Source: Scenedesmus sp. PABB004
Taxonomy: Eukaryota
NCBI GenBank assembly: GCA_014905635.1
Contig: JABVCE010000014.1
Span: 744,001-808,000, forward strand
Direction: 5' to 3'
Length of the DNA stretch: 64,000 bases
In this document: positions 21,682 to 58,498 of the stretch, piece by piece
Layout: each line of letters starts with the position of its first letter
How positions within the stretch are numbered: the first letter of the stretch is position 1
Program-made: the position numbers and the translations under genes
The notes under the pieces: model-generated
Seen by the model: only the letters and a program-made list of their open reading frames with translations
What the model was told of the DNA's origin: nothing
Databases searched by the model: none

Positions 21682-24420
21682 TGCGGCCGCCGCCGCTCCG
21701 CACACTCGCCGCAGCCGCCCCACCGCCACACAGCCACAGCGCCCCTAGCGCGCCACACCGCACGCCCGACCGAACTGCCGCGCCCGCCGCGCCCCCCCCC
21801 CCCCCCCCCCCCCAGCCGCCTGAGCCACTGCAGCGCCGCGGGATCCGGCGCCCTCGCCCTCGCCCGGGGCCGCCCAGCAGCCCCTCCCGGCCCGCCCGGC
21901 CGTGGGGAGGCGGCGCCGCCGCCGCTGCTCGCTCCCGCGCCGCGCCGCCCGCCGCGGCCGCGCCCGGCCCCGGCCCCGCTGCAGCGCCGCGCCCATGGAG
22001 CCCGGCGATGCGGTGAGCACGGATCACGGGCGGGCGCCAGCGGCCGGCGGCCGGCGGCGGCGCGGGGGGCGTGCGCGCGCCGCTGCTGCTGCGTGCACCC
22101 CGGCGCCCGCCGCCGCCCTCGCGCGAGCCAGCGCCGCGCCCCCCGCCGGCTGTGCGCCGGAACCTCCCTGCTCCGCTTCTCCGCCCGCGCCGCAGGGCGC
22201 GTCGCCCTTTGCGCGGCTGCCGGCGGAGGTGTTGCCGCGCGTGCTGGCGGAGCTGGACCTGCGCGAGCGTCTGAGCGCCGCCGCGCTCGTGTGCCGCGCC
22301 TGGGCCGACGCGGCGGCGCGGCCAGCAGGGACGTGCGCATCAAGCTTGAATCGGCGGTGAGCGCGGCCCAGCGCGGCGCTGCAGTCAGCGGCTGGGTGGG
22401 GGGGCGGGGGCGCGGCGTGGTGAGCTTGGACACTGAGGGCTCTGGGTCCTACGAGGATGACCTGGAGCTGCCGCTGCCGCTGGCCCAGCTGCGCAGCCTG
22501 AAGTGCTTTCTCACGGGCGTGGCGCTGCGCGACGACGGTGGCGGCGGCGGCGCGCTGCCAGCGCTGACCTGCCTGCACATGGATGAGTGCATCTTTCCCG
22601 CCGGCCTGCTGTGCCCCGGGTTGAGCGATCTGCGCCTGCAGTATTGCAATGGGGCATCGGTCGGCGAGGTGCTCGCGGCGCTGCCGCGCATGCCGGCGCT
22701 CACCGACATGTTTATTGTTGGCGACGCATTTGCCAGCGCCGCGCTCTCTGCAGCGGCAGCGCTGACGGCGCTGCAGCACCTGAAGCTGTATGTGCACGAT
22801 GCACCAGGGCCAACGCACGTCCCGCCGCTGCCGCCCGCGCTCACACGTCTGGAATTGGACTGCCTGCAAGGCGGCGCGGCGGGCCCCGCTGCCCTCGCGC
22901 ACCTCACGGGGCTGGAGGGCTTGACCCTGCGTGACGTCACGCTGGTCGACCCGGCCGCGGCGTTCACGCCGCTCACACGCCTCACGGAGCTGATGCTGCA
23001 GCTGTGGGAGGGTGGCGACAGCGCCACCACGTCAGCGCTGCTGCGCGTGCTGCCGCGCCTGGCCCGGCTGCAGGACCTGGTCCTGGCCTTTGGGGACCAC
23101 CACCAGATCCTGGCTGGCTGCGCCGAGTCTGCGAGCAGCATCGCGGCGCTCACGGGGCTGTCGTGCCTGGTCCTGTCTGGCAGCTCTCTGGCGCCTGGCG
23201 CGGGAGCGCGCCTGTTTGCACGCGCGCTGCCGTCGCTGCGTGCGCTGGCCATCAACTGCACTGTCAGCGTGCCAGTCCTGCGACTGGGGCAGGCCGAGCT
23301 GGACGCCCTGGTCGGCACCTGCCCCGGCCTGCGACAGCTGCAGCTGTTTCACGCAGTGGAGCCCGGCGCAAGCTGCGCGCGCCTTGGCCTGCTGAGCGAG
23401 CTGAGGTTGCTGGACCTGGACGGCGACTGCCTGAGCGACGACGACGTGGCGCACCTGGCGCGCGCGCTGACCGTGCTGCGGGACCTCAGCTTTTGGAGTG
23501 CGCCGCGGCTGGGCGCCGCCGGCGTGGCCAGCCTGGTGGACGCGACGCGGCTCACGCGCCTGAAGGTGCAGGAGCGCGGCTTGGATTTTGAGCTGACGTG
23601 CACGGTGCGACACAACGGGGGTCGCCGGCAGGCCTGCGCGCCGGCCCACGGCACGCCTGCACACGCGCCACGGCCGCGTCGCCGCAGGAGGACCCGCCCA
23701 CGGTGTCGCGCCAGCTGGAGGAGCTGTGCTGCAGCAGCAAGGCGCTGTCCAGGGCACTGGTGGCGCATCAGCGCCAGCAGCTGGCGACGGCGCGCGGTGA
23801 GCGGGGGCCAGCGCTGGCGCTGGGCGCCGTGCCTCGTGCCGGCTTGAGGGACAGACACCGTCTCACGCGCTGCCTGCCGCCACCGCGCCCTGCAGGCGTG
23901 CTGGAGGCCAAGGAGCTGGTGGCTGCGGCCGCGGCCGCGAGGGAGCAGCAGCAGGCCACCGAGCTCGCGGCCGCGGGCGCGAGGGAGCGGCAGCTGGCCG
24001 CCGAGCTGGCAGCGGCGCGCGCGTTGGCGGCGGAGCTGCAGCAGCAGCCGGGCGTGGCGCGCGGGCACAGCTGAGGGGAGGCGCAGCTGAGCGGGCGCCG
24101 CCTGCGGGAGCCTGCAGCGGGGGTGAGATGGGGCGGCCGAGCGCGTGTGTGCGTGCGGCTGAGCCGGCCACTGAGCGGGCGGCGGCGGCGCGGGTGGGAG
24201 CCGCGGGGCAACAGGCAGGCAAGCAAGCGAGCGTCAACGCCGCCGTCACGCAGAGGGCCCGCCGCGCCGCCCCTCCAGCTTTGCCGCTTCCGCAGCAACC
24301 TCACCGTGAGCGGCCGGCGCCGCCGGGACCAGCGGTTCTGCGCAGCGCACCGCCCTGCCGCGCGCCGCTGTGCGCAATACGGCGGCCGCCGTCGCGCCGC
24401 ACACTCACCGCAGCCGCCCT
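21682..24420 (+). repeat. Repeat unit copy 3, with a ~40 bp terminal direct repeat
   Basis: GCGGCCGCCG..CGCACACTC(G/A)CCGCAGCCGCCC occurs at both 21683-21720 and ~24382-24419. The spacer at 24075-24420 matches 36870-37220, 39615-39970 and 42381-42730. Confidence 0.8.
21995..24074 (+). CDS. F-box/LRR/coiled-coil gene copy 3 (one apparent 1-nt frameshift at ~22318)
   Basis: Micro-exon MEPGDA|GT at 21995, then F-box [50 protein letters not shown] lacks one C relative to the other copies. LRRs follow, then exon 3 [15 protein letters not shown] and a coiled-coil exon 4. Confidence 0.75.
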
Positions 24421-24488
24421 GCTGCCCTCCGCTGTGCCCTCCGGTGTGCGCCTTGCGTGCGCGGCAGCAGCGCACGTTCGCCGCCGCG

Positions 24489-28430
<3,942 letters not shown>

Positions 28431-28664
28431 GCCCCCCCGTGCGTGGTGCGGCGCTGCGTCCGCCCCGTTTGTACAACCACCAGCTGGGGCTGTGTGTATC
28501 ATAAAGACAGGCACCCCCCATCAGCGGGGGGACAGGGGGACAGGGGGCGAGGCGCCGGGGCAGCCCGCGCCGCTGCTGTACTCATGTTTGCGCGCGCGCG
28601 CGCTGCTGCTGCGGAAGCGGGCGCAGCGCACGGCGCGGGCCTCCGCCGCGGTCGCCGCCGGCGT

Positions 28665-30929: not shown

Positions 30930-32674
30930 CGCGCGCCGCCGCCCGCTCGGTGGCCGGCTGAGCTGCGCGGAAACCGCACGCACGCTCAGCCGCCCCATCT
31001 CGCCCCCGCTGCAGGCTCTCCCGCGCGGCAGCGCCTGCCCGGTCGCGCCCCCGCTCAGCCGCGCGCCCGCGCCACGCCCAGCTGCAGCTGCTGCTGCAGC
31101 TCCGCCGCCAGCGCGCGCGCGGCCGCAAGCTCGGCGGCGAGCTGCTGATCCCTCGCGCCCGCGGCCGCGAGCTCGGCAGCCTGCTGCTGCTCCCTCGCGC
31201 CCGCGGCTGCCAGCTCGGCAGCCTGCTGCTGCTCCCTCGCGGCCGCGGCCTCGGCCGCCAGCTCCTTGGCCGCCAGCGCGCCTGCGGGCGTGGCGAGGCG
31301 GCGGGCAGCGCGTCGCACGCCCAATCCCGCACGCCAGCGCGAGGCCAGCCGCTCAGCACCTGCGCCGGCCCCGCTCACCGCGTGCCGCCGCCAGCTGCGC
31401 GTTCTTGTGCGCCAGCAGCGCCCTGCACAGCGCCTCGTCATCGGGGCACAGCTCCTCCAGCTGCTGGGCGACCGTGGGCGCGTCCTCCTGCGGCGGCGCG
31501 GCGGGGTCGTGTGTCAGCTGTCGTGTGCAGCAGGAGTGCAGGCTGCTGCTGCAGTGGGCGGTCTGAAAGGGCGACTGCCGCTTACGTTTGACCACAAGTT
31601 GATGGCGTCCTCATCGTCCTCACTATCGACGTCGCCACCAGCAAAGCCCGTGCCAAAGAGACGCAGACGCACCAGCCGCGTCGCGCCCACCAGGCTGGCC
31701 ACGCCGGCCGCGCCCAGCCGCGGCGCTTCAGCGAGCTTCAGGTCCTGCAGCGCGGTCAGCGCGCGCGCCAGGTGCGCCACGTCGGCGTTGCTCACGCAGT
31801 CGCCCGTCAGGTGCAGCAATGTCAGCTTGCTCAGCGAGCCGAGGCGCGCGCAGCTTGTGCGGGGCCCGGCTGCGTGCACGAGCCGCAGCTGCCACAGCCC
31901 GGGGCAGGCGCCGACCAGGGCGTCCAGCTCGGCCTGCGCCATTCGCGCGCCTGGCCCGCTGACAGTGCAAAAGATGGTCAGGTCACGCAGCGCCGGCAGC
32001 GCGCGCGCAAACAGGCGCGCCCCCGTGCCGGGCGCCACAGCGCTGCCAGACAGCACCAGGCACGACAGCTGTGTGAGCGCCGCGATGCTGCTGGCAGACT
32101 CGGCGCAGCCGGCCAGGATCTGGTGCTGGTACCCAAAGTCCAGGACCAGCTCCTGCAGCCGGGCCAGGCGCGGCAGCACGCGCAGCAGCGCCGAAGTGGT
32201 GGCGCTGTCGCCGGCCTCCCACAGGTGCAGCGTTAGCGCCGAGAGGCGCGTGAGCGGCGCGAACGCTGCGGCCGGGTCGACCAGCGTGATGTCACGGAGG
32301 CGCAAAAACTCCAGGCCCGTGAGGTGCGCGAGGGCGGCGGGGGCCGCCGCGCCGCCTTGCAGGCCGTCCAGCTCCAGGCGCGTGAGCGCGGGCGGCAGCA
32401 GCGGGACGTGCGTTGGCCCTGGTGCGCCGTACATACACACCTCCAGGTGCCGCAGCCCCGTCAGCGCGGCCGCAGCCGAGAGCGCGGCACTGGCGAGGGG
32501 GTGGCCGGAGATGACGAGCTCTGTCAGCGCCGGCATGCGCGGCAGCGCCGCCAGCACCTCGTCAGACAATGCGCCCTCCCAACCTCGCATTTGCAGCTCG
32601 CACAGGCCGGGGCACAGCAGGGCGGCGGGGAAGGTGCACTCTTTCATGTGCAGGCGGGTCAGCGCCGGCAGCGG

Positions 32675-32733
<59 letters not shown>

Positions 32734-33723
32734 CGCCGCGCAGCGCCACGCCCATGCCAGTGCACTTCAGGCTGCGCAGCTGGGGCAGCAACAGCGGCAG
32801 CTCCAGCGGCACGTAACAGTATTCGAGGGCGGTGGCGTCCAGGCTCGCCACGCCGCGCCCGCGCCCCGCCAGCCAGCCGCTGAGCGCGGCGCCGCGCTCC
32901 TCTGCTTTAAAAACGTCGCCAAACTCTATGCACACGTCCCTGCTGGCCGCGGCCGCCGCGTCGGCCCAGGCGCGGCACACAAGCGCGGCCGCGCCCAGGC
33001 GCTCGTGCAGTTCCAGCTCCGCCAGCACGCGCGGCAGCACCTCCGCCGGCAGCCGCGCAAAGGGCGACGCGCCCTGCGGCTCGTGACCGGGGCGGCGCAG
33101 GGAGGGTCAGGCGCGCAGTCGGCGGGGGTGCGGCGCTGGCTCGCGGGGCGGCCGCGGCGCGGGGCGCACGCAGCAGCGGCGCGCGCACGGCCCCCGCGCC
33201 GCCGCCGGCCGCCGGCCGCCGGCCGCTGGCGCCCGCCCTTGATCCGTGCTCACCGTATCGCCGGTATCCATGGGCGCGGCGCTGCAGGCGGGGCCGGGGC
33301 CAGGCGCGGCCGCGGCGGGCGGCGCGGCGCAAGGGCGAGCAGCGGCGGCGGCGCCGCCTCCTCGCGGCCGGGCGGGCTGGGCGGGGCTGCGGGGCGGCAC
33401 CGGGAGAGGGCGAGGGCGCAGGAGCACGCTGCAGCGACCAGGCGCCCGGGGGGGGGGCGCGGACGGGCGCGGCGCGGTTCGAACTGGCGTGCGTGTGGCG
33501 CGGGCGCAGGCGCGCGCAGCGTGTGGGCGCCAGGCGGCTGCGGCGAGTGTTGCTGAGTCATGGCGGCGCCCGCACCACACGGCGACTGCGGCGCGCGGCA
33601 GGGCAGTGCGCGCAGAACCGCCGCCGGCTCCGGCGGCGCCGGCCGCTCACGGCGCGGTTGCTGAGGAAGCGGCAGAGCTGGAGGAGCGGCGCGGCGGGCC
33701 CTCTGCGCGACGGCGCCATTGCC
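30930..33723 (-). repeat. Repeat unit copy 4 (circularly permuted: starts and ends inside the spacer)
   Basis: On the minus strand it begins at GGCAATGGCGCCGTCGCGCAGAGGG (~33723) and ends at ..CCACCGAGCGGGCGGCGGCGCG (~30930). In the tandem array these two points are only ~40 nt apart (~36990 and ~37031). Confidence 0.8.
31055..33271 (-). CDS. F-box/LRR/coiled-coil gene copy 4 (apparently intact, 4 exons)
   Basis: Micro-exon MDTGDT|GT, then an open ~500-aa exon 2 with F-box, poly-Gly (GGC)n linker and LRRs. Exon 3 EDAPTVAQQLEELCPDDEALCRALL; exon 4 has three AAELAAA units. Confidence 0.85.
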
Positions 33724-33831: not shown

Positions 33832-34896
33832 TCAGAGGATGTAGTAAAAGGGGTTTGGCAGCTTGAACGCCGCCGGCGCCGCGTGGTCGCCGTTGAGGTC
33901 GCTGAACTGGTCCCCCACGAGCCCCGACAGCGCGTACGCGCCGCCCGCGAGCAGCTGCGCGCGCGCCGCCGGCTTGAAGACCGACGCGAGGCGCGTGTCG
34001 TTGGCGCCGCGCATCAGCAGCGCGTCGAAGCAGCAGCCGCCGGGCGCGGCGGCGGCGCGCCCGCGCGCGCCGCCGGCCGCGCAGGGGCCGCCGTAGCCCG
34101 CGGCCGCGAGGTTGGCGAGCGTCGCCGCGCGGCTCACCTCGCGGCGCCCCGTGACGAGCGCGAGCGCAAAGCCCGCGCGGCAGAGCGCGCCGTACAGTTG
34201 CGCCACGGGCGCGAGCGGCGGCGCGGCCGCGGCCGCGACCCACTTGTCCCAGGGCCACGCCTCGGGCGAGAGGATCTGCGCCATGTTTGACAGCAGCGTC
34301 TCGTCGATGTCAAAGACCACGAGCGGCGCCGGCGATGCCGCCGCCGCCCCGGCGCCGGCGCCGGCGCGCAGCAGGCTGCGCGCGCGGCGCGCCGCGCCGC
34401 GGACGGCGTCGCCGCTCTCGTTGAAGCCGAACGCGTCCATCGCGCTCCGCGCCGCGAGCTCCACCTGCGCAGGGCGTGGGCGCCGGCGGCGCGCGGCGCT
34501 CGGCGGTGGGCGAGCTCGCGCGCGGCGCGCGGAGGGCCGGCCCCCGCCCCGCACCTCCTTCCAGTAGGCGCCGCCGCTGCTCCCGTACGACGCGAGCTGG
34601 GCGCGGCAGTAGGGCGGCGACGGCCCCGCCGGGTGCAGGCTGCCGCCGGGCGCGACGGCGCCGCCGCCGAGCAAGTGAAGACATTCCGCCGCGACGCCGG
34701 CGCCGCCACCGCTCGCCCTCAGCCGCGCCGACAGCGCCGCCACCCAGCACGCCAACGCCAGCAGCGCGCAGCCGCCGAGCGCCTCCGCCGCGATGCGCAG
34801 GCTGAAGCAGCGCCGGCGCCGCTGCGTGGCGAGCCCCGAGTGGCCCCAGGCGCCGCCGCCCAGCGCCTCCAGGTCCTCTCCCGCAATGGTCTGCAT
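33832..34896 (-). CDS. Class B (HAD superfamily, plant VSP-like) acid phosphatase with N-terminal membrane anchor
   Basis: HAD motif I VVFDIDETLLSN, motif II LVTGR, motif IV VGDQFSDL and the family C-terminus FKLPNPFYYI. One in-frame intron lies at ~34466-34553. Confidence 0.92.
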   Translation of the reverse strand: MQTIAGEDLEALGGGAWGHSGLATQRRRRCFSLRIAAEALGGCALLALACWVAALSARLRASGGGAGVAAECLHLLGGGAVAPGGSLHPAGPSPPYCRAQLASYGSSGGAYWKEVRGGGRPSARRARARPPPSAARRRRPRPAQVELAARSAMDAFGFNESGDAVRGAARRARSLLRAGAGAGAAAASPAPLVVFDIDETLLSNMAQILSPEAWPWDKWVAAAAAPPLAPVAQLYGALCRAGFALALVTGRREVSRAATLANLAAAGYGGPCAAGGARGRAAAAPGGCCFDALLMRGANDTRLASVFKPAARAQLLAGGAYALSGLVGDQFSDLNGDHAAPAAFKLPNPFYYIL

Positions 34897-43999: not shown

Positions 44000-46900
44000 G
44001 CCGGCGGCAACCCGTTTGCGCGCAAGCGCGGCGCCGACGCGGCCACGCCCGCGGCGGCGCCGGCGGCCAAGACCTTTGCGCGCGGCGCGAGGCCCGCGGC
44101 GGCGCCGCCGTCCACGGGCGGCGCGCCTGCCGCGGCTGGCGCCGTGAAGCAGGAGCCGGCGCAGTCGTTCAGCTTTGCCGCCGCCGCGGCGAGCGCCGCC
44201 GCGCGGCGCGACGACGACGACGGCGCCGCGGCCGGCGGCGCCGGCGCCGAGGAGCAGGAGTTCTCCTTTGCCCTGCCCGGCGGCGCCGAGCCGGAGGCGC
44301 TGCCGGAGGACCCGTTCGAGCCCGGGGCGGCCGGGCCGGGCGGGGACGCCGCGGACACGCCCGCCGACGTGCCGCCCGCCGACGACGCGCCGGCGGCGGC
44401 GGCGCCGCCGCGGCGGTTTGCCGACGACGTGCCGGCGTGCCCCGACGCCGCGGCGTGCCCAGCGACCGGCTGGCTGGAGGTCTACGGCTCCGACCTGCCG
44501 CCCGGCGGGGCGCCGCCCGGCGGCGACGCCGGCGGCGCGGCGGCCAGCCCCGCGGCCGACGGCGCCGCCGGCGGCGAGGCCCGCGACGCGGGCGACGCGC
44601 ACGCGGCGGCGCCGGCCGAGGGCGAGGGCGGGGGCGAGGAGGTTCCCTTCTTCTTCCTGGACGCCTATGACAGCCCCGACAGGCCGGGTGCGCGCGCGCG
44701 AGCGCGGGGTTGGGATGGGGGCAGGGTTGGGGGCAGCGCCCGCGCTCGTGCGGCGCGGCGCGGCGCCGGCCCCGCGGCCCCGCCTCGCCCCACGCGCCCC
44801 GTCCCCGCCCGCGCCCGGTCCCCGCCCCGCCCACGCAGACACGCTCTTCCTGTTCGGCAAGGTCGCCGCCGACCCCGGCGCGCCCGGCACGCCCGGCGCG
44901 GCGGCCGCCGCGCCGCGCAGCCCCGGCGGCGCCGGCGGCGGTACGGCCGGCTGGGCGTCGTGCTGCGTCGTGGTGCCCAACCTGCACCGCAGCGTGCTCG
45001 CCGTGCCGCGGCCGGAGGTCTTTGATGACGCCGACGGCGCGATCGCGGCCGCCGAGGCGGCCGCCGCGGCCGACCCGGCGGCGCGCATGGCGCTGCTGCA
45101 GCTGCTGCACGGCCGCTGCGGCGGGCTCAAGGCCGAGCTGCGCGAGCTGTGCGTGCGGCACGGCATCAAGACGATGCGTGTCGTCCCCGTCAAGCGCAGC
45201 TACGCGTTTGAGGACCCCGCCATCCCCACGCGCGAGCAGTGGGTGCTCAAGGTGTGACATGACATTCCCCGCGGCGGCGGCGCACCGCGGCGCGCGGCGC
45301 GGCGGGCGCTCTCGCGGAGGGGGCTCTCTGCGCGCGGCCCTCACCCCGCCGCCGCCGCCGCCGTGGCCGCCGCGGGGCGCGCGCGCAGATCCGCTACCCC
45401 GCGTCGCTGCCGGCGCTGCCGCTGGGCGTGAGCGGGGAGCACTTTGTCGCGCTCGCGGGCGCGCAGACGAGCGCGCTGGAGGCGCTGCTGATTAAGCGCG
45501 GCCTGCGCGGCCCCGGCTGGGCGACGCTGCGCGCGCCCGTGCGGCGCGAGGGCGCGCAGATGGTGCGGCCGCGCCCGCGGCGGCCGCGGCGGCGCTGCCG
45601 CACACATGTTGGCGCGTCGGCGGCTGGCTGCCGGCCGTCGGCGCTGCGCGCGCCCGCGGCCGCGCATCGCCCCAACCACCCTCACCCGCCCACCGCCGCC
45701 GCCGCCGCGGCGGCGCGCGCAGGTGAGCTGGTGCCGCACGGAGTACGTGCTCGCCAACGCCAAGGCGCTGTCGCCGGCGGCGCCGGGCAGCGCGCTCGCG
45801 GCGCGGCCGCCGCCGCCGCTGACCGTGGCGGCGCTCAACCTGCGGCTGCACACGGACCCCAAGTCGCGGCAGCAGGAGATCCTCGCGGCGAGCGTGGTGC
45901 ACCTCTCGGGTGCGCGGCGCTGCGCGCCGGAGCGGCCGCGCGGCCGCGCGGCCGTGGCGCTCGCTCCAGCCAATGCCGACGCTGCGCCCACGCCCGGCGC
46001 CGCCGCCCGCGCCCGCAGGCGTCGGCATGGACGCCCCGACGCCGCGCGCCGTGTGGGGCAGCCCGACGGCGCTGCGCAACTTCACCATCGTTCGCAAGCT
46101 CGACAACCGGCCCTGGCCGCCGGGTGCGGACCCCCCTGGCACGGCGGGCGCGCGCGGCCGCCGCCGCTCGGAATAGAGGGCGGGGGCCCTGGACGGCGGG
46201 CGCGCCCCTCCCGCGCGCTCGAGTCCGCGCCCGCTCGCCCCCGCCCTCACCCGCGCCGCGCCCGCTCGCCCGTCGCTCGCCGGCCGCAGGCTTTGAGGCG
46301 CTCGTCGCGTCCGACAACGCGACGCCGCGCGGCGCGCTCAACGGCGGCGCGATGCTGGCGACCGCGCCCAACGAGCGCGCGCTGCTCGGCTGCCTGCTCG
46401 CGCGCCTCGCCGCGCTCGACGCCGACGTGCTGGTGGGGCACAACATCGGGGCCTACGAGCTGCCCATCCTCCTCGGCCGCCTCCAGGCGCACAAGGTCGG
46501 CGCGGCGCCGCGCCGCGCAGCACCGCGCCGCGCTGGTCCTTCCATCCCGCGCGCGCGTCGGCGGGGCCCCGCGGCGGCCGCCCGACCCGCCGCGCGCCGC
46601 GCGCCGCGCGCCGCGCGCCGCCGCCGCGCTCGCTCTCGCGCAGGTGCAGCTGTGGAGCCGCGTCGGCCGGCTCAAGCGCAGCGCCTTCCCCAAGCTCACG
46701 GGCGGCGGGCACACGTTTGGCGGCGGCGCGGGCCCCGGCGTGATGTCGGCGCTCGCCGGCCGCCTGCTGTGTGACACCTACCTCTCGGGTGCGCGCCCGC
46801 ACGAGACCTCTGCGGGCGCCCCCGCACGAGGGCTCCCGCGCCCCCGCGCCCCCGCGAGCTCCCGCCCGCCGCCCGCCGCGCCCGCTCACCCTCCCGCCCT

Positions 46901-47211: not shown

Positions 47212-48700
47212 TGCGCGTCACCCCCGCCGCGCGCGCGCCGCGCAGTCCTGCCGCTGACGAAGCAGCTGAGCGTCGTGTCGGGCAGCCTGTGGAGCCGCAC
47301 GCTGCAGGGCGCGCGCGCGGCGCGCATCGAGATGCTGCTGCTGCATGAGTTCCACGCCCGCAAGTTCATCCTGCCCGACCGCCTCACCGCGCGCGACCGC
47401 GCCGCGCTCGCGGCGGCCAAGGCCGGCGGGCGGCGGCGGCGGCGGCGGCGGCAGGCAGGCCCGCGCCAGCGGCGCCGGCGAGGAGGAGGAGGTGGGTGTG
47501 GGTGCGCGGGCGCGTCGCGCGCGGCGCGGCCGGGCGCCCCGGCCGCGCGCCGCTCACCGCCGCCGCCGCCGCCGCGCCACGCGCGCGCAGCACGACGGCC
47601 CGCCGCCGCCCGACGACGACGCCGACGGCGACGACGCCGGCGCCGGCGACGGCGCCGCGCCCGGCGCGTCCGCGCCCGCGCCCGGCGCGGGGCTGAGCAA
47701 GCGCGCGGGCGGCAAGGGCCCGCAGTACGCCGGCGGGCTCGTGCTGGAGCCCAAGCGCGGCCTGTACGACAGCTACGTGATCATGCTGGACTTCAACAGC
47801 CTCTACCCCTCCATCATACAGGCGCGTTACTTTTTGCGTTACGTCACGTCATGTTTGGCGTCACATGCCGCCGCCGCCGCCGCGCGCACGTGCTCGCACC
47901 TATCCGCACGCTCACCCGCCCGCCCCGCCCCGCCCCGCCCCTCGCACAGGAGTTTAACATCTGCTTCACGACCGTCAAGCGCCCCGCCGGCGGCGGCGTG
48001 CCCGAGCTGCCGGGCGGCGCTGACGCGGGCGGCGGCCCCGGCGGGCTCGCGCCGCTGCCGACCGTGATCCAGGGCCTCGTCCGCAAGCGGCGGGAGGTCA
48101 AGGCACAGATGAAGCTCTGCAGGCGCGGCGCCGGCGGGCAGGCAGCGCGCGGGCCCGCGCGCGGGCGGGCCGGCTTGCTGCGCGGCGCTCCGCGCCGCGC
48201 CGCCGTGCCTGGCCTCACGGGCGCGCCGCCGCCGCGCGGCGCCGCAGGGACCCGGTGCTGCTGCAGCAGCTCACGATCCGGCAGCAGGCGCTGAAGCTCA
48301 CCGCCAACTCCATGTACGGCTGCCTCGGCTTCTCCAACAGCAGGTGCGGCCGCTGTCGGCGCTGCACTCGGCTCGCCCGGCAGCGCCGCGGCGCCCCGCC
48401 CCGCCCGACGCCGCCCGCCGCCGCCGCCGCCGCCGCCGCCGCGCAGGTTCTTTGCGCGCCCGCTGGCGGAGCTCATCACGAGCCAGGGCCGCGACATCCT
48501 GCAGTCGACCGTCAACCTGGTGCAGGACCTGGGCGTGCCGGGGCTCGAGGTGCGCGCCAGCGCAGCCGCCCGCCGCTGCCCCGCCCTGCTGCCCCGCGCG
48601 CGGCCACTGCGTTTGCCCCCGGCGCAGCGCGGCGGCAGCATCGGCGCCCACGCCACGTCGCCCCGTCGCTGCCGCCGCTGCCGCCGCCGCCGCCGCCGCC

Positions 48701-48732
<32 letters not shown>

Positions 48733-51604
48733 CGCCGCCGCCGCCGCTGCCGCTGCCGCCGCTGCCGCTGCCTCTGCCGCCGCTGCCGCTGCCGCTGCCG
48801 CCGCCGCCAGGTGATCTACGGCGACACCGACTCCATCATGATCCACACCGCCACGACCGACTACGACGCCGCCGAGGCGCTCGGGGCGCGCATCAAGGCG
48901 GCGGTCAACAAGCGCTACAGGCGCGGCGGCGGCGCCAGCGCCGGCGCCGGCGGCGGCTGCGCGCCCGCTGCGCGCCCGTGCGGCCGCCCGCCCGTCGCGC
49001 CCGTCGCGCCGCTTTGGCTGACCGCGCCCGGCGTCTGACACGCGCGACTGCCCTGCAGGCTGCTTGAGATTGAGCTCGACGCCGTGTACCGCAGCATGCT
49101 GCTGCTGAAGAAGAAAAAGTACGCCGCGGTCAAGGTGCGCCGCGCGCGGCCCTGCTAGGGCTGCGCTCCCGCGCGCGCCCGGCCGCGCCGCGCGCGGGGC
49201 CAGCACCCACCGGCGCGCCGACGCCGGCGCGTGCGGCGCGCGCGCAGATCGAGCGCGGCCCCGGCGGCGTGCTGTCGGAGGCGCTGGAGGCGAAGGGCCT
49301 CGACATGGTGCGCCGCGACTGGTGCCCGCTCTCCAAGGACACCGGCAACTACGCGCTGCAGCAGATCCTCTCGGGTGCGCCGCCGCCGGCCGGCCACGGC
49401 GCCCGCTGCCGCCGCGCCCGCCCGCGCCGCGCCCGCCCGCGCGCCCCGCCCGCGGCTCACGCGCGCCGCCGGGCCCCCGGCCGGCCGGCAGGCAAGCCCA
49501 AGGCCGAGGTGGTGGAGGCGGTGCACGAGAAGCTGCGCTCCGTCGGCGCGGCGCTGCGGCGCGGGGAGCTGCCGCTCGGTGCGTTTGTGATCACCAAGCA
49601 GCTCACCAAGCGCCCCGAGGACTACCCCGACGCGCGCGCGCAGCCGCACGTGCAGGTGCGGCGGGCGCCGCAGGGTGCCGCGCGCGGCGCGGCGCGGCGC
49701 GGCGTCAGGGGCCGGGCGCGGTGTTGTGGGCAGGGCGAGGCCGCGGCGCAGCGTGGCGCCGCGCGCGAGCGACCCCGCCCGCCCGCCCGCCCGGCTGTGC
49801 CGCAGGTCGCGCTGCGCCGGCGCGCGGCGGGCAAGCGCGACGGCGTCATGCCGGGGGAGACGGTGCCGTACGTCATCTGCCTGCGCCTCTCGCCGGAGCA
49901 GCAGGCGGCGGCCGCGGCGTCGCCGGCACCGGCGGCGGCCGAGGCGGGCGGCGGGGCGGAGCCGATGCAGGCGGACGGCGAGCAGCCCGCGGCGGCGGCC
50001 GCGGCGCAGCCGGCGGCGTCGCCCCCGGCCGTCGGCGACGGCCAGGCCAGCCCGGCGGCGGCGGGCGGCGGCGAGCAGCCGCCGGCGAGCCCCGGCGCGC
50101 CCGCGAGCCCCGGCGCGCCCGCGAGCCCCGCCGCCACGCCGAGCGGCGGCGCCGGCGGCGGCGGCAGCGGCGGCGTGCGCACGGCGGGCGGCGGCGGCGG
50201 CGGCGGCGGCATCGCGGAGCGCGCGTTCCACCCGGACGAGCTGCGCGCCGACCCCAGCCTCGTGGTGGACGCCGACTACTACCTGGCGCAGCAGGTGCTG
50301 CCCGTGGTGGTGCGCCTGTGCGCGCCGATCGAGGTGCGGCGCGCGCGAGGGCGCGCAGGCGCTGCACGCGGGCGCGACGCGCGACGCGGCGGCTGACCGG
50401 CGCCGCTGGCCGCGCGCCGCCGCCACCGTCGCCGCCTTGCGCACAGGGCACCAACGGGGGCCACCTGGCGCAGTGCCTCGGCCTCGACGCGTCGCGCTAC
50501 GGCGGCGGCGGCGGCGGCGGCAGCAGCATGGCGGCGGCGCTGCGGGAGGAGGCGATGCAGGTGACCGGCAGCCTGCTGGACGACGACACGCACTACGCCA
50601 AGTGCGAGCCGCTGCGGCTCACCAGCGCCAACGCGACGAGCTGGGAGTTTTGTGGCGTGCGCGCGGCGCTCAAGTGCGTGGCAGGGGGCGGAGGCGCGGC
50701 CGGCCTGGCGCTGCACGGCCGCCGGGCCGGTCACTGACGCCCGGCCCCCGCGCCGCGCCGCCCCGCCGCGCAGGAACAGCGTGCCCGGCAGCGCGCTGCT
50801 CACGCCGCCGGACGCGGTCGCCGACCCTGCTGCGGAGCTCACCGCCGCGCAGCTCGCCAACCAGGCAGTGCTCGCGGCGCGGCGCGCGATCGTCAAGTGC
50901 GCGCGCGACGCGCTCTGCCGCGCCGCGCGCTCGCGCGCTCGCGCGCACCGCGTGCTCACGCGCCCCGCCCCTCCCGCCGCCCTTGCCGCGCCGCGCCGCG
51001 CCAGGTATTACGACGGCCAGCTGGTGTCGGACGACGAGATGGCGCCCGCGGGCGCCGACTGCCGCGACGTCGTGCTCGCGCCGCCGCCGCCCGAGGCGCC
51101 GCCCGGCGCGCTGCCCAAGCCCGGCGGCGGCGGCGTGCTGCTGTCGCGCGCTTACACCGAGGGCCAGCTGTACACCCAGGTGCGGCGCCGGCGCCACGCC
51201 AGCTGACGCTGCGTCCTGCAAGGGCCCGCGCCGCGCGCGTCCTGCGAGCGCGCGCGCCCTGCGAGCGCGCCCGCCGCCCCGCGCCCGTGCCCGTGCCCAC
51301 GCGCGCGCGCCCCCGCCCGCGCGCGCAGCTGAGCTACCTGGTGCGCCTGCTGGACGTCAAGGCCGCGGTCGCGGTGCTGCCTGACAAAGCGCGGCGCGAC
51401 GCCGCGGCCGCGGCGCTCGCGAGCGGCGCGGGCGCGGTCCCCGCGGCCGCGTCGCTCGCGGCCGCGGCGGCAGCGGTGTCGCGGCTGCGCGACGCGTGCG
51501 CGTATCGCTGGGTCGACCTGGGGCAGCTGTTCGGCCGCCTGCGCGCGGGCGGCCCGGCCGGCGGCGGCGCGCCGCCCGCCGCGCCCGCGCTGCGCGTGGC
51601 GTGA
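43016..51604 (+). CDS. POLA1: DNA polymerase alpha catalytic subunit (B family), multi-exon
   Basis: N-terminal [90 protein letters not shown] (region II), [17 protein letters not shown] (III), [10 protein letters not shown] (I), [31 protein letters not shown] and YYLAQQVLP. Confidence 0.96.
48668..48807. repeat. (GCC/GCT)n trinucleotide tract, intronic
   Basis: A ~140 bp GCC/GCT array directly before the acceptor of the VIYGDTDS exon. Confidence 0.9.
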
Positions 51605-52109
51605 CGCGCGGTTGCGGCGGCAGGGGACGGGCGGCGCGGGCGGGCGGTAACTCCGGCCGGCGTTGTGTGCGCGCGGCTCGCGCGCAGCCCGGGCGGCGAG
51701 GGGCGGCCCGCGCACCGAACGCGGGCCGGCGGCGCCCTGCCGCCGCCGCCGCCGGCGGCGCCCTGCCGCCGCCGCCGCCGGCGGCGTGGCCCTGGCCGCG
51801 AGCAGTGGAGCTCTCCCGCGCTCGCCTGCGCGGGAGTCGGTGGGCGGCTGCTGGAGCGCGGCGCGTGGGTGGGGGTCTCCCGACCAGCAGAGACCCGCGG
51901 TGCCCCGCCCCCACGCGCCGCCCCGCGCCCCACGCCCCCGCCCGGGCGTGCGCTGCGCATTCTTCGTTCCCTCGCTGGCCCCTCCGCGAGCTGCCGACCG
52001 CCGTTCGCGCCAGGCGGCCGACAGCAGTAGGCGCGTAGCGGCCGGACCCCCCCCCCCCGCGCGCCGCGGCCCGGCGGCCCTGCGGCGGCTGCGGAGGTGG
52101 TGCGGCGCG

Positions 52110-55100
52110 ATGTTTGACACCGCCATCGTGGGGCTGTGGGTGCCCGCGGTGGTGTTTGCCCACGTCTTCAGCGCCTACTGGTTCATCAGGACCGCCCTGG
52201 TCTACAATCCCGCCGCCTTCTCGCTCCGGCGACGCCCCCGGCCCTCCACGACCGGGCTGCCCGTCAAGGGCGGCGCGGCGGAGCCCGAGGACGAGCGCGC
52301 CGTGGAGGCGGTGCTGGCCGGCGCCAAGGGCAGCCTGAGCGGCGCGCCGCCCCTCATTCGTGAGTGCTGGGAGCTTGCAAGCCTCCCGGGCCGCGTGCCA
52401 GGGCGCCGGGGGCCGTGGGGCCGAGGCGGCCCGCGGCGTTGGCGCGCATCGCGCGGCCGGCCGCCCGACGCGCCCCCGGCGCGCGCCGCAGGCGCAAAGG
52501 TCGTCACCGAGAGCGAGGGCGACGGCTCGGCCGATGGCGGGCCCGGCAAGCGCCCCGGCGGGCGGGCGGCGGCGAGCGTGCAGCGCGTGCACCTGGAGTG
52601 GCAGCAGCTCTGCTGCAGCTACAGCGTCGGCGGCGCCAAGCTGGTGGTGCTGCAGGACGTCTGGGGCTCTGCGGCGCCGGGCGAGATGCAGGTGCGGCGG
52701 CGGCGCGAGCGGCGCGGGCGGCGCGAGCGGCGGCGGCGCGGGCGGCGCGAGCGGCGGCGGCGCGGGCGGCGCGCGCGGCGGCGCGCGGCGGCGCGGGCAG
52801 CCGCCAGCGGCCAGCGCGGCCGGCGCAGCGCAGGCTGGCGGCCGCACAAGGCAGCGGGTGCCGGCCGCACGCTCCTGCAGCCGTGCTGGCGCTGCGCGGC
52901 CCGGCGCGCGCCGCCCACTGGCCCGCGCGCCTGCCTGGCGCCGCGCGCAGGCGCTGCTGGGTCCGAGCGGCGCGGGCAAGTCGACGCTGATGGACATCCT
53001 GGCGCAGCGCAAGAGCATGGGCAGTCTCAGCGGCTTCCTGCTGGTCAACGGCCGCCCCGCGGGCAGCAGCTTCATCCGCAAGACGGCCTACGTGCCCCAG
53101 GTGCGCGCCGGGCGCCGCGCGCAGCGCCCGCTGGCAGCGGCGGCGGCGGCGCCGACGGCGGCAGCAGCAGCAGCTCGGACGGCGGCAGTGCTGGACACAG
53201 CTGTGGCGGCAGCGGCGGCAGCTTGGTCAGCAGCACCGGCAGCGGCGGCGGCGGCGGCGGCGCTCACTTGCCCGCGCCGCCGCGGTCGCCTCCCCGCTGC
53301 CGCCGCTGGTGCCGCCGCCGCGCGCAGGACGACAACTTTGTCGCGACGATGACGACCGCCGAGACGATGGCCTTTTACGCGGACATCATCCTGCCCTCCA
53401 CCTGGACCAAGGCCGACCGCAAGGCGCGCGTGGCCGAGGTGCTGGCGGCCATGGGCCTGCGCCACAAGCACCGCACCATGGTCGGCGGCACGCTGCCGGG
53501 CGGCCTCATGCTGCGCGGCCTCAGCGGCGGCGAGCGCAAGCGGCTCAGCATCGCCGCGGGCATCCTGGCGGCGCCGAGCATTGTGTACCTGGACGAGCCG
53601 ACCAGCGGGCTGGACAGCTTCTCGGCGCTGACCGTGATGGGCTACCTGAAGCGCATGGCGCGCGACAACGGGCACGTGGTGATTGCCTCCATCCACCAGC
53701 CCCGCTCCGCCATCTGGTCCATGTTTGACAAGGTGCGGCGCGCAGCTCTGCCGTGCGGCGGCGGCGGCAGCAGCGGCGGCGGCAGCAGGCGACGGCAGCA
53801 GGCGGCGGCAGCAGCAGACGCCCGTGCGGCAGGCTGGCAGCCGGCCGGGCGCTGACGCGCGCGCGCACCCGCGCCCGCGCCCGCCTCCGCCGCTGCCGCC
53901 GCCCCGTGCAGGTGACGCTGCTGGCGAGCGGGCGGCTGATGTTCCACGGCGCGCGCGACGACCTGGTGCCCTGGTTTGGGCACCTGGGCTACGCGTACGA
54001 CCCCGCGCTGCACGGCGTGGCCTCGGACTGGGCGCTGGACCTGGTGGCCATCGGCTTCCACAAGCCCAAGCGCTTCTACGGCCACACCATCACCACCACC
54101 GAGGAGCTGGCGCGCGCGAGCAGCGAGTTTGTGGCCAGCTACGCCGCCGGGGTCGCGCCCTTTGCCGGCGGCAGCGGCAGCATGATCGGCTCCAAGTCGC
54201 TCGGCCAGAAGATGCAGGCGCGCGTCAACAAGCTCGTTGGCGCGCGTGCCAGCACCGGCGGCGTCGGCTCTGCCGTCATGCCGATGGCCAGCGACACCAG
54301 CAGCGACGGCGACGCTCTGGACTTCCCGAAGGACCTGGTGCCCGCGCTCGCGGCGCCGCGCGGCGGCGCGGACGCGCAGGTGCACGGCGCGCCGCCGCAG
54401 TCCAAGTGGGCGACCGGCTGGTGGCGCCAGTTTGCGTCGTGCTACTGCCGCGAGCTGCTCTCGATCACGCGCAACCCCGCCGACGTCGCTGGGCGCACGA
54501 TGACCTTTGCCTGGGTGGGCATCCTCATGGGCCTGCTCTACTACGGCATGCCCAGCGACGCGAGCAGCATCCGGGGGCGCCTCAACATGACCTTCAACAA
54601 CCTGGTCTTCTTCTGCCTCATGCCCTACGTCTCGATGAGCCTCTACTGCGCCGACAAGAAGTTTTACCTCGCCGACGCGAGCGCCAAGCTCTACCGCCCG
54701 CACGCGTACTACGCGGCCAAGGTGCTCGCCATCACGCCGTTCCACATCATCTCGGCGCTCGTCTTCACGTTCACCATCTACGGCATGACCGGCCTGCGCC
54801 CCGGCGGCCGCTTCATCCTGCAAAACGGCACCATCTCCACGCTGCTGCTGCTCATCTCGTCGCAGGTGCGGCGGCCAGCGGTCGTGCGGGCTGCGTTCTG
54901 CGCGATGCGCTACGCTGCACTGCGCTGCGCCGCGCGCCGCCGCGGCCTGAGCCCCGCGCCGCCGCGCCGCCGCGCCGCCGCGCCGCCGCGCCGCCGCCGC
55001 CAGGTGCTGCACGCGTGCGCGATCATCGCGCCCAACCAGGACGTCGCGTTCATGCTGAGCATCGTGTGGACGGCGGTGCAGCTGTTCTTCAGCAACTACT

Positions 55101-55480
55101 TCATCCTCTTCACGCAGGTCAAGCTCTCGGGCATCACCTTTTTCCGCTGGGGCTCGGCGCTCTGCTACGCGTTTGAGGGCATGCTCGTGACCGAGTTTGG
55201 CGGCATGCGCTACCGCTGCGACGGCGGGCTCGACGCCGCGTCGCTGAGCATGCTGCGCACGCTGCTGCCCGGCAACCGCTGGCTCAGCATGCCCGCCGTC
55301 GTGGCGGGGCTCGAGCGCCCCGGCGCCGACTGCGTCGCCGACACCGACGCGGTGCTGGACTACTACGGCTTCCGCCAGCCCTTCACCCACACCTTTGGCA
55401 TCCTGCTCGGCTACCTCGCCGTCTGCCACGCCGCGACGTACGCGGCGATGATCGCCGTCGCGCGCCACGAGCGCCGCTGA
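52110..55480 (+). CDS. ABCG (White-type) half transporter, paralogue A, multi-exon
   Basis: Walker [11 protein letters not shown]-loop AYVPQ|DD, signature [12 protein letters not shown], Walker [19 protein letters not shown], and a C-terminal ABC2 membrane domain. There is an extra N-terminal TM segment. Confidence 0.93.
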
Positions 55481-56080: not shown

Positions 56081-58498
56081 ATGGAGCCCGGCGATGCGGT
56101 GAGCACGTATCATGGGCGGACGCCAGCGGCCGGCGGCCGGCGGCGGCGCGGGGGCCGTGCGCGCGCCGCTGCGTGCGCCCCCGCGCCCGTGGCCGCCCCC
56201 GCGCGAGCCAGCGCCGCACCCCCGCCGACTGCGCGCCTGACCCTCCCTGTGCCGCCCCGGTCACGAGCCGCAGGGCGCGTCGCCCTTTGCGCGGCTGCCG
56301 GCGGAGGTGCTGTCGCGCGTGCTGGCGGCGCTGGACCTGCCCGAGCGCCTGGGCGTCGCCGCGCTCGTGTGCCGCGCCTGGGCCGACGCGGCGGCCGCGG
56401 CCAGCAGGGACGTGTGCATAGAGCTTGGCGAGGCCGACAGTACGGCCGAGCGCGCCGTCGCGCTCAGCAGCTGGCTGGCGGGGCGCGGGCGCGGCGTGAC
56501 CAGCCTGGACGTGACCGGCGGCTACGTGGTGCAGTTGAAGCTGCCGCTGCCGCTGGCCCAGCTGCGCAGCCTGTTGTGCTATTGCATGGACGTGGCGCTG
56601 CGCGGCGACGACGGCGGCGGCGGCGACGCCCCGCTGCCTGCGCTGACCCGTCTGGACATGGACGAGTGCACCTTCCCCGCTGCCCTGCTGTGCCGCGGCC
56701 TGCGCCAGCTGCGTCTGAACTACTGCATAGGGGCATCGTCTGAAGAGGTGCTGGCGGCGCTGCCGCGCATGCCGGCGCTGACAGAGCTCATCATCGCTGG
56801 CCACGCGCTCGACAGCGCCGCGCTCTCGGCCGCGGCCGCGGTGACGGGGCTGCGGCGGCTGGTGCTGTGTATGTACGGCGCACCAGGGCCAATGCACGTC
56901 CCGCCGCTGCCGCCCGCGCTCACGTGTCTGGCTTTGGACGGCCTGAAAGGCGGCGCGGCGGGCCCCGCTGCCCTCGCGCACCTCACAGGCCTGGAGTGCT
57001 TGTCCCTGCTTGAGGTCGTGCTGGTGGACCCGGCTGCAGCGTTCGCGCCGTTCACGCGCCTCATGACGCTTCATCTGCACCTGTGGTCCAGCGACAGGGC
57101 TGCCACATCGGCGCTGCTGCGCGTGCTGCCGCGCCTGGCCCGGCTGCATGGTCTGGCCCTTGACTTTGCGGCAGACCACCAGATCCTGGCCGGCTGCATC
57201 GAATCTGTCAGCAGCATCGCGGCGCTCACGCGGCTGTTGCGCCTGGTGCTGCGCGGCGACGAGTTGGCGCCCGGCGCGGCGGCGCGCCTGTTTGCGCGCA
57301 TGCTGCCGTCACTGCGTGGGCTGACCATCTCTTGCGCTGTCAGCGGGCCACGCGTGCGGCTGGCGCAGGCCAAGCTGGACGCCCTGGTCGGCGCCTGCCC
57401 CCGCCTGCGGGGGCTGAAGCTCTCGCATGCAGTCGAGCTCGGCACAAGCTGCGCGCGCCTCAGCCTGCTGAGCGAGCTGAGAGCGCTGAACCTGGCCGGC
57501 GACTGCGTGAGCGACGACGACGTGGCGCACCTGGCACGCGCGCTGCCTGTGCTGCAGGACCTCAGCGTTGTCAGCGCGCCGCGGCTGGGCGCGCTCGGCG
57601 TGGCCAGCCTGGTGGACGTCACGCGGCTGAGCCGTCTCCAACTCGCCGACTGCGGCGTGCAAGAATACTTCGACGATGATGGCGACATCGAGTTGACGTG
57701 GAAGGTGAGCGCGGCGTGCGCAGGGCGCCGCAAACGGCCACGCAACTGCCCGCTGCACGCCTGCACACGCGCGCGACCGCCCCTCGCCCGTGCCGCCGCA
57801 GGAGGAGCACGCGTGGTGGACGGTGTCGCGCCAGCTGGAGGAGCTGTGCTGCACCAACGAGGCGCTATGCAGGGCGCTGGTGGCGCGAAAAAACGCGCAG
57901 CTGGCGGCGGCGCGCGGTGAGCGGCGGCCGGCGCGGGCGCTGGGCGCCGCGCCTCGTGCCGGCGCAGGGGACAGAGCGTCTCACGCGCTGCCCGCCGCCG
58001 CCGCCGCCGCGCCCCGCAGACGCGCTGGCGGCTAGGTGGCAGCAGCAGGCCGCCGAGCTCGCGGCTGCACGTCAGTGGCTCCAACAGCAGGCCGCCGAGC
58101 TCGCGGCTGCACGTCAGTGGGGGCAACAGCTCGCCGCCGAGCTCGCGGCTGCGGGCACGAGGGAGTGGCAGCTGGCCGCGGAGCTCGCGGCTGCACGTCA
58201 GTGGGGGCAACAGCTCGCCGCCGAGCTCGCGGCCGCAGGCACGAGGGAGTGGCAGCTGGCCGCCGAGCTCGCGGCTGCACATCAGTGGGGGCAACAGCTC
58301 GCCGCCGAGCTCGCGGCCGCAGGCACGAGGGAGTGGCAGCTGGCCGCCGAGCTCGCGGCTGCACATCAGTGGGGGCAACAGCTCGCCGCCGAGCTCGCGG
58401 CCGCAGGCACGAGGGAGTGGCAGCTGGCCGCCGAGCTGGCAGCCGCGCGCGCGCTGGCAGCGGAGCTGCAGCGGCTGGGCATGGGCGCGGCCGAGTGA
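56081..58498 (+). CDS. F-box/LRR/coiled-coil gene copy 7 (intact, expanded coiled-coil tail)
   Basis: Micro-exon MEPGDA|GT, F-box and LRR exon, exon 3 [16 protein letters not shown], and exon 4 with ten AAELAAA units. Confidence 0.85.
58038..58450 (+). repeat. Coding minisatellite: 42-nt module with an 84-nt higher-order period
   Basis: [27 protein letters not shown](R/H) occurs four times, preceded by two single 14-aa units. Confidence 0.92.

Follow-up and report, generated by a model that had tools for sequence, protein, structure and literature searches.

Seven paralogous genes encoding proteins with an F-box and a leucine-rich repeat (LRR) domain are found within a 64-kb stretch of the genome of the chlorophyte Scenedesmus sp. 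PABB004, and the proteins differ from each other most strongly at residues that appear to line the concave face of the LRR domain. The stretch (contig JABVCE010000014.1 of assembly GCA_014905635.1, positions 744,001 to 808,000) is referred to here as the window, and its 64,000 nucleotides are numbered from 1. The reading favoured here, with a confidence that is about evenly balanced, is that the genes encode substrate receptors of SKP1-cullin-F-box (SCF) ubiquitin ligases under concerted evolution, whose short variable patches would be kept different since selection favours differing binding faces. The evidence that selection drives the variable face is suggestive.

The window has a guanine plus cytosine (GC) content of 73–83% throughout (about 78%), which is green-alga-like and similar to the 78.5% given for the Scenedesmus sp. 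PABB004 genome in a published account (PMC12571836), and the GT...AG introns of its genes mark it as eukaryotic. The seven copies, named c1 to c7, were located by tblastn with the LRR part of c3 as the query, and their gene structures were inferred with a related protein, P0002, as guide. They share a common plan, consisting of an 18-nt exon 1 that codes for MEPGDA, an intron of ~180 nt, one exon of 478–509 codons that codes for the F-box and the entire LRR domain, two short introns and a C-terminal tail formed of an Ala/Glu/Leu-rich repeat. The LRR solenoid contains 15 canonical repeats together with about three N-terminal cap strands. The large exon is intact in c4, c5, c6 and c7, is frameshifted in c3 and internally deleted in c2, and c1 is cut by the edge of the window (Table 1). 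Copies 3–7 of an earlier interpretation of the same DNA, termed here the sequence-only reading, correspond to c3–c7, and its starting point at 21995 is the start codon of c3.

The N-terminal F-box is recognised by the Pfam F-box-like model PF12937, with bit scores of 26.8 for c4, 33.1 for c5, 34.1 for c6 and 29.0 for c7 against a cut-off of 24.3, and the F-box motif LPxEVL...L...VCRxW is visible in the alignment of the copies. The Pfam LRR models are mostly below threshold, the exceptions being LRR_14 in c6 (40.3 vs 40) and PF24758 in c4 (33.2 vs 27). The AlphaFold2 (AF2) model of the c7 protein, made with a 36-row alignment, is formed of regular strand and helix repeats and has a mean predicted local distance difference test (pLDDT) score of 90.3 and a predicted template modelling (pTM) score of 0.88. 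Among solved structures, Foldseek matches it best to TIR1, COI1, MAX2/D3 and FBXL2, along with generic LRR proteins such as InlA; the F-box/LRR matches have E values of 5e-11 to 4e-9 and identities of 15–18%. The nearest protein is P0002, a 550-residue hypothetical protein from Scenedesmus sp. PABB004 in which Pfam recognises F-box-like and LRR domains. It shares 61–65% identity with the copies and entered the comparisons as protein only. It is the sole close relative in two very large protein searches. The search of representative proteins (1.84 billion) returned 394 at E<=1e-3, 25 at 1e-10 and P0002 alone at 1e-30.

Judged by their predicted domain content, the genes are FBXL-type SCF substrate receptors, because they combine F-box and LRR domains with a fold resembling that of TIR1, COI1, MAX2 and FBXL2 and carry no NB-ARC or other domain. 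Binding to SKP1 and a function within an SCF ligase are likewise predicted from the domains. Only F-box and LRR families were returned by Pfam for the copies, with no NB-ARC, TIR or transmembrane part. The sequence-only reading had likened the variable pattern to that of plant nucleotide-binding LRR receptors (NLRs) and of lamprey variable lymphocyte receptors (VLRs). As an identification of the genes, plant NLR was rejected since NB-ARC was not found by Pfam in the copies, and VLR-like assembly was rejected since the F-box and LRR exons are complete (478–509 codons) and no further LRR fragments or cassettes occur in the window. The genes are of the cytosolic F-box protein type, neither NLRs nor VLRs.

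Variability was scored on an alignment of 535 columns that contains the seven copies and P0002, in which the 15 repeats were marked by their LxxLxLxx motif and motif positions 2, 3, 5, 7 and 8 of each repeat were taken as the x columns (n=75). The mean pairwise amino-acid difference is 0.575 at the x columns and 0.229 at the 240 other LRR columns (Mann-Whitney p ~6e-16), a ratio of 2.5, with a value of 0.071 for the 45 L columns. By motif position, the three L positions have values of 0.00–0.19 and positions 2, 3, 5, 7 and 8 have values of 0.39–0.76; at repeat positions 11–26 the values are 0.06–0.37, so that variability is periodic with the repeat. The contrast between a nearly invariant scaffold and variable xxLxLxx positions, which the sequence-only reading had described by eye, is therefore real. 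The scaffold strings and both sets of examples that it quoted are present as written, the first set coming from LRR 3 and the second from LRR 5.

The placement of these residues was made through the DSSP string of the AF2 model and the periodicity of the strands, and not through three-dimensional distances. In the c7 model the DSSP strands coincide with motif positions 3–7 in all 15 repeats. Variability alternates between high and low along every strand, which is the pattern expected of residues that point out from a concave sheet, and it is greater in strands (0.434) than in helices (0.210) or elsewhere (0.274). The model thus supports the view that the variable residues are those exposed at every other position of the β-strands on the concave face. 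They lie on one face, and the scatter over the structure that had been named beforehand as contrary evidence is not seen. The make-up of the x positions is interface-like, with 40% charged, 14% aromatic and 28% Gly, Ala, Arg and Pro (GARP) residues, compared with 14%, 4% and 41% in the scaffold.

Misalignment around indels, or the decay of pseudogenes, could in principle generate a false pattern of this kind, but such an artefact is scarcely credible. Several of the loops do contain indels, c2 and c3 are disrupted, and one of the sites flagged in the selection tests below is a column in which Ser is invariant but its codon changes between the AGC and TCN types. However, the pattern stays when only the 378 strict gap-free columns of five full copies are used, the variability follows the repeat period, and decaying pseudogenes would have lost conservation at the L and framework positions too. 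The strict-column analyses largely refute this explanation.

The patches had also been judged more divergent than the introns. This holds for all three introns, with 0.36 differences per nucleotide in the patches vs pairwise distances (p-distances) of 0.11 in intron 1, 0.19 in intron 3 and 0.30 in intron 2, the margin being narrow for intron 2; the upstream 170–300 nt have values of 0.08–0.14. The ratio of nonsynonymous divergence at x codons, dN(x), to pooled intron divergence is 2.43 (1.83–3.18), and to the synonymous divergence (dS) of the scaffold it is 2.4 (1.8–3.2), both from a tree-free bootstrap. Scaffold dS divided by intron divergence gives 1.01, so the two yardsticks agree. Relative to intron 2 alone, the dN(x) ratio is 1.28 (0.91–1.82). 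The stretch that is most alike among the copies, the 5' 500 bp, encompasses the promoter and 5' untranslated region, exon 1, intron 1 and the F-box (37283–37800 in c5, with equivalents in c3, c4, c6 and c7), where distances are 0.03–0.15. Between copies, this 5' stretch of the repeat unit also differs less than do the silent sites in the LRR exon. The similarity of the 5' end suggests either recent conversion or regulatory constraint.

The paralogs recombine and exchange sequence. The pairwise homoplasy index (PHI) is 0.36 as observed vs 0.49 when permuted (p<=0.0005), segment trees conflict, and a test on the longest stretch of polymorphic sites over which two copies are identical gives p<0.05, uncorrected, for 4 of 10 copy pairs. 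Bases 1–263 of c1 are 95% identical to 22839–23101 of c3, with only 79–82% in the DNA downstream. The patch variants are mosaic, such that c3 is like c5 at LRR 1, like c1 at LRRs 7–8, like c4 at LRR 10 and like c6 at LRR 12.

Selection was assessed with purpose-written codon models (MG94-F3x4 and GY94, each concerned with the ratio ω of dN to dS, and the site models M0, M1a/M2a and M7/M8). Under M0 the overall ω is 0.71 with MG94-F3x4 or 0.55 with GY94, of which MG94 fits far better. The standard site tests are strongly positive, with twice the log-likelihood difference (2dL) at 63.7 for M1a/M2a and 68.9 for M7/M8 and with 13% of sites at an ω of 3.4. The value is 28.3 on the gap-free columns of the five full copies and 36.7 when summed over segment-specific trees (8 df, p 1.3e-5). 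Sites with an M2a posterior >0.9 are concentrated in the x columns (6/75 vs 3/300 other LRR columns, Fisher p 0.003), although one flagged site is the Ser column mentioned above, and a switch between Ser codon families is a known artefact in site tests. When branch lengths are shared, ω for the x codons (ωx) is 1.56 for five copies (p 3e-4) and 1.76 for seven copies (p 3e-8). The LRR framework is under purifying selection, with an ω of 0.33–0.49; the non-x LRR codons have a value of 0.49 (p 4e-11 vs 1) and the F-box and linker 0.60.

A number of results weigh against selection as the cause of the variable face. The tests rest on seven recombining sequences, and their signal depends on the model. 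With a double-nucleotide parameter, which improves the log-likelihood (lnL) from -3733 to -3688, the 2dL of the site test falls to 3.3 (p 0.19); three synonymous-rate classes reduce it to 5.3 (p 0.07), and the two together to 1.0 (p 0.61). The conservative multi-hit model is justified because clustered changes are real even in non-coding DNA, where 46 adjacent pairs of derived changes occur vs 27 expected (1.7-fold, p<=0.0005). Codons with double changes are in excess both outside the x positions (42 vs 20.6 expected, ~2-fold) and within them (33 vs 22.8, 1.45-fold). On its own rate scale, ωx is 1.32 with MG94 (p=0.14 vs 1) or 0.87 with GY94, and with shared branch lengths and double hits it is 1.18 for five copies (p 0.27). 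The x codons have diverged equally at codon positions 1, 2 and 3 (p-distances of 0.36/0.37/0.34, vs 0.14/0.12/0.17 in other LRR codons). Lastly, c2 and c3 are disrupted, which makes two of seven, and open frames count for little as evidence where the DNA is 78% GC; 392 open reading frames (ORFs) of at least 100 aa are found in the window.

Silent changes point the same way. Synonymous divergence is 0.218 within three codons of an x codon (102 columns) vs 0.122 farther away (173 columns; p 0.0008), a rise of ~1.8-fold that is also seen on the strict columns of five copies (0.200 vs 0.111, p 0.004). For Leu codons inside the patches (at motif positions 4 and 6), 85 of 343 same-residue pairs differ (0.248), compared with 37 of 491 (0.075) for scaffold Leu codons. 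A raised silent divergence near the patches is not predicted by positive selection on point mutations alone. GC at third codon positions (GC3) does not differ between near and far columns (0.884 vs 0.903, p 0.22). Same-residue pairs at the x positions themselves display no synonymous rise (0.158 vs 0.144), but this count is given less weight because it is biased toward recently related pairs. The strong diversifying selection on a binding surface that was proposed from the sequence alone is thus partly supported, in that its placement on one face is borne out, whereas its strength is model-dependent: M1a/M2a and M7/M8 are highly significant but lose their signal once double hits or synonymous-rate variation are allowed for. 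Likewise, the dN/dS of 1 or less that had been set as its refutation finds ωx on the line, at 0.87–1.76 depending on the model and up to 2.4 against the intron yardstick. As a caution, where paralogs recombine in a genome of 78% GC, standard PAML-type site tests overstate positive selection.

Relaxed constraint, or genomic drift, is the main competing explanation and a tentative but appreciable possibility. Here the unconstrained exposed positions would diverge neutrally, with many copies perhaps bound to become pseudogenes. As conversion needs near-identity, the framework, its silent sites and the introns would be homogenised whilst short drifted patches escape. An ωx of about 1 against local synonymous change, the equal divergence of the three codon positions, the local synonymous rise, the exchange between paralogs and the disruption of c2 and c3 all suit drift, and this view is argued for lineage-specific plant FBX genes by Hua et al. 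2011 (PMC3030570). In the same paper, Ka/Ks values above 1.4 come mostly from C. reinhardtii and monocots, which have GC-rich genomes. On the other hand, ωx exceeds 1 in every MG94 fit, including the seven-copy fit with double hits (1.35, p 0.012), and an unconstrained binding face on a conserved scaffold would be odd for a working receptor unless its diversity were useful. Moreover, the numbers of shared and single-copy variants have similar proportions in patches (45:69) and scaffold (79:154), which fits a higher rate of change in the patches rather than only older, unconverted lineages.

Selection for differing binding faces is preferred over drift because ωx is never clearly below 1 on a conserved scaffold, all of the MG94 estimates lie above 1 and the residues are interface-like. 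The local silent rise, the local ω near 1 and an ω of 1.5–2.4 against the scaffold and intron yardsticks are together best fitted by a model of conversion between paralogs in which the framework, its silent sites, intron 1 and the 5' region stay similar and the patches remain distinct. In the favoured reading, the N-terminal F-box would dock the protein onto SKP1 and the cullin, leaving the LRR solenoid, judging by its fold, to offer its concave β-sheet to the substrate. Exchange between paralogs would homogenise the LRR framework and the 5' part (promoter, exon 1, intron 1 and F-box) and maintain their high GC content. The strand patches, at the xxLxLxx positions, would stay different as selection retains or promotes differences against this homogenisation.

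The patches were also claimed to be richer in AT than their background, and at codon positions 1 and 3 this is so. GC at positions 1, 2 and 3 is 0.62/0.51/0.79 in x codons and 0.80/0.54/0.90 in other LRR codons, with intron GC at 0.79–0.85. The two AT-rich strings quoted as illustrations are both at the places given; the first, at 22706–22721, lies in patch 4 of c3 (22699–22725), but the second, at 37822–37842, is outside the 15 LRR patches, in the variable linker after the F-box (37687–37797) and ahead of the first patch at 37966. Amino-acid content accounts for much, but not all, of the enrichment. Composition alone was rejected as its cause, since GC3 in x codons is lower also within amino-acid classes (Mantel-Haenszel odds ratio 0.53, p 1.7e-5, at the codon level with non-independent copies). 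Columns that hold an A/T-ending codon number 39/75 among x columns vs 115/390 among the others (Fisher p 0.00026).

Changes confined to a single copy run mostly from GC to AT, with ratios of GC-to-AT to AT-to-GC of 49:3 at non-x third positions, 33:16 in x codons and 47:7 in the three introns. Over exon 2, introns 1–3 and the upstream 300 nt, GC-to-AT outnumbers the reverse by about 5–16-fold in every compartment, and the per-site rates of single-copy changes are about equal in both directions. This places the copies far from an equilibrium composition, with GC being lost within a 78% GC genome unless such changes are later removed by biased conversion. The AT enrichment may thus be a by-product with two causes. 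Exposed charged, aromatic and polar residues have AT-richer codons than the Ala, Leu, Gly and Pro of the framework, and new changes at the locus are GC-to-AT-biased everywhere, so that the most-changed positions, the patches, would turn AT-richer by holding more of them.

Targeted mutagenesis, which the sequence-only reading had offered as an alternative to selection, belongs to a group of explanations that invoke locally raised or clustered mutation in the patches, whether by targeting, by error-prone repair or by templated micro-conversion from unsampled diverged copies. This group is improbable. The higher synonymous divergence of the patches agrees with it, as do the larger share of their Leu codons that end in A/T (15/150 vs 10/297 in the scaffold, p 0.007) and the large gain in fit from the double-hit parameter. 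Set against these, the GC-to-AT bias does not differ between patches, scaffold and introns, nor does the transition to transversion ratio, which is close to 1 throughout, and the transition bias kappa is lower in the x codons (1.8 vs 3.1 elsewhere). Single-copy changes at third positions are as frequent in x (17/75) as in non-x codons (83/388), and the clustering of changes is no stronger in x codons than in non-x codons or non-coding DNA. No reverse transcriptase, cassette array or incomplete germline gene was seen in the window. The proposed comparison of substitution spectra found those of patches and introns alike, with no transition excess, so targeted mutagenesis leaves no signature of its own. 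Two specific mechanisms were rejected. Repeat-induced mutation of the RIP type is contradicted by the missing transition excess (single-copy transitions to transversions of 38:26 in x codons and 116:96 in non-x codons). For a diversity-generating retroelement, no reverse transcriptase was detected among 31 long ORFs scanned, and the changes are mainly GC-to-AT rather than adenine-specific.

In a wider form of the favoured explanation, which we consider doubtful, the cluster would be part of a diversified ubiquitin-ligase recognition repertoire directed against viral proteins, other foreign proteins or similarly fast-changing targets. New specificities would arise by block exchange of patches between paralogs, with the framework kept uniform by GC-biased conversion. 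If this were true, the short-range silent rise and the environmental contigs with other patches would be traces of block exchange. The contigs in question are short, come from four DNA metagenomes (shares 0.05–0.10) and include freshwater and sludge contigs that match the c5/c6 scaffold on both sides (37200–42300; 85% likeness). They carry 21–40 differing letters exactly at LRR patch 4, LRR patch 12 and the linker loop, with equal length and in frame. Such contigs probably derive from additional family members, or from strains in which the patches differ. As the matched flanks are short (21–55 letters), the other letters at patch sites between matching flanks are only a weak hint, here and for the mutational explanation above. 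The search for related DNA in metagenome contigs gave 121 pattern matches, of which none was confirmed.

A variable face of this kind has precedents in the F-box families of plants and nematodes, and the nearest kind of system is that of the lineage-specific, fast-evolving FBX families. Few gene families in plants and nematodes evolve as fast as those of F-box receptors, and positively selected lineage-specific F-box families were reportedly described by Thomas in Genome Res in 2006. A full-text search found no literature report of hypervariable F-box/LRR clusters in chlorophytes. In common with the plant and nematode families, the present genes combine an F-box with a variable substrate-binding domain, the F-box being conserved and the recognition domain divergent. 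They are also clustered, lineage-specific paralogs that include disrupted members (seven copies in 64 kb, two of them disrupted), and, as with the pseudogene-containing FBX clusters, positive and relaxed selection are in dispute (Hua et al. 2011, PMC3030570; Navarro-Quezada et al. 2013, PMC3719486). The present case differs in that it comes from a chlorophyte with ~78% GC, in that silent divergence is raised beside the variable sites, and in the use of an LRR solenoid, where the cited cases of positive selection mainly concern FBA, kelch and other domains. Furthermore, the variable sites can here be assigned residue by residue to a strand face. Whether F-box diversity is adaptive, with innate-immunity-like targeting, or the outcome of neutral genomic drift is still disputed, and the cluster provides a compact, well-resolved chlorophyte example. 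The rise in silent divergence around the variable residues is a testable clue to the interplay of conversion and diversity.

TIR1, COI1, MAX2/D3, FBXL2 and Skp2 have the same domain order and fold, and the LRR surface of such proteins binds a degron or ligand. They are, however, conserved single-copy signalling receptors, whereas the present proteins form hypervariable arrays, have an Ala/Glu/Leu tail and share only 15–18% identity with them. Hypervariable xxLxLxx positions and sequence exchange between tandem paralogs also characterise the plant NLR and Cf-type clusters. These resemble the present cluster in having variation on solvent-exposed LRR strand residues, mosaic paralogs and conserved flanks, but here the F-box points to ubiquitin-ligase targeting, and the NB-ARC, TIR and transmembrane parts are lacking among the Pfam matches. 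In lampreys, the VLRs are secreted or GPI-anchored and arise by somatic assembly, in which cassettes are joined into a germline gene that is incomplete. They share diversity on the concave LRR face, but the present genes are complete in the germline and contain an F-box, and no cassette array is seen in the window. In the major histocompatibility complex (MHC), the introns and framework are homogenised, and diversity and raised synonymous divergence are confined to binding-site codons. The conserved intron 1 and 5' region, the diverged binding-site codons and the short-range linked silent rise are similar here, although paralogs of one genome, not alleles, are involved.

Table 1. Positions of the F-box/LRR copies in the window (patches are the variable nine-codon strand segments)
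Feature	Position	Strand	Remarks
c1, 3' part of LRR exon, LRRs 6–15	2–790	+	tblastn; truncated by the window start
c1 patches	2–28, 74–100, 143–169, 230–256, 317–343, 395–421, 488–514, 560–586, 635–661, 710–736	+	
c2, disrupted	14591–13358	-	exon 1 ATG at 14591; tblastn
c3 exon 1 (MEPGDA)	21995–22012	+	ATG 21995; N terminus as in P0002; intron 1 GT...AG 22013–22195
c3 exon 2, F-box and 15 LRRs	22196–23619	+	F-box in frame 2, LRR part in frame 1 from 22318
c3 nine-codon patch starts	22489, 22564, 22621, 22699, 22771, 22840, 22912, 22981, 23068, 23158, 23236, 23329, 23401, 23476, 23551	+	
c4 exon 2, intact, 489 codons	33073–31607	-	F-box 33061–32951, 15 LRRs; patches 32779–32753 to 31675–31649
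c5 exon 2, intact, 486 codons	37675–39132	+	F-box 37687–37797, 15 LRRs; patches 37966–37992 to 39064–39090
c5 3' part: intron 2, exon 3, intron 3, last exon with tail	39121–39650	+	alignment and tblastn vs P0002 C terminus
c6 exon 2, intact, 509 codons	40429–41955	+	patches 40747–40773 to 41863–41889
c7 exon 1	56081–56098	+	start codon 56081; intron 1 up to 56273
c7 exon 2, intact, 478 codons	56274–57707	+	modelled protein; patches 56562–56588 to 57627–57653

Within the disrupted c2, the F-box with LRRs 1–4 (14408–13881) and LRRs 10–15 (13855–13358) are in different frames, and LRRs 5–9 are missing, ~100 codons having gone between 13881 and 13855. The frame switch of c3 falls within 22184–22330, at the F-box/LRR junction, where ~13 codons are absent, and reflects either a genuine frameshift (a pseudogene) or an assembly error. 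The loop between LRR 1 and LRR 2 of c4 has a run of 20 Gly, seen as (GCC)n on the + strand at 32656–32748, where other copies have 5–7 Gly. The 3' arrangement of c5, with introns 2 and 3, exon 3 and the repeat-tail exon, is common to the remaining copies. The tail exon is built from a 42-nt (14-codon) Ala/Glu/Leu-rich tandem repeat that has no Pfam match. In c7 (58038–58437, +) the 42-nt unit is repeated 9.5 times, which can alternatively be counted as 4.2 units of 84 nt with 97% matches; about two units are present in others (c3 23918–24102, c5 39460–39644 and c6 42266–42408). This copy-number-variable repeat forms a probable coiled coil.

The pair c5 and c6, spaced by ~2.75 kb, is the sole direct tandem, and the F-box/LRR copies are otherwise scattered between housekeeping genes and do not make up a single pure tandem array. 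Neighbouring loci are found at 14446–22448 (-), 42869–46771 (+), 51651–55477 (+), 59194–61848 (-) and 33835–34917 (-), and the neighbouring products are a class I tRNA synthetase, the DNA polymerase alpha catalytic subunit, two ABC-2/ABCG-type transporters and a HAD IIIB acid phosphatase. At 16355–16526, within the region of the tRNA-synthetase gene and presumably in an intron, lies a ~170-nt microsatellite, (GTGA)n / GTGAGTGA. Long imperfect GCC/GCT arrays, which would encode poly-Ala or poly-Gly according to strand, occur at 48585–48871, 61340–61566 and 28261–28439.

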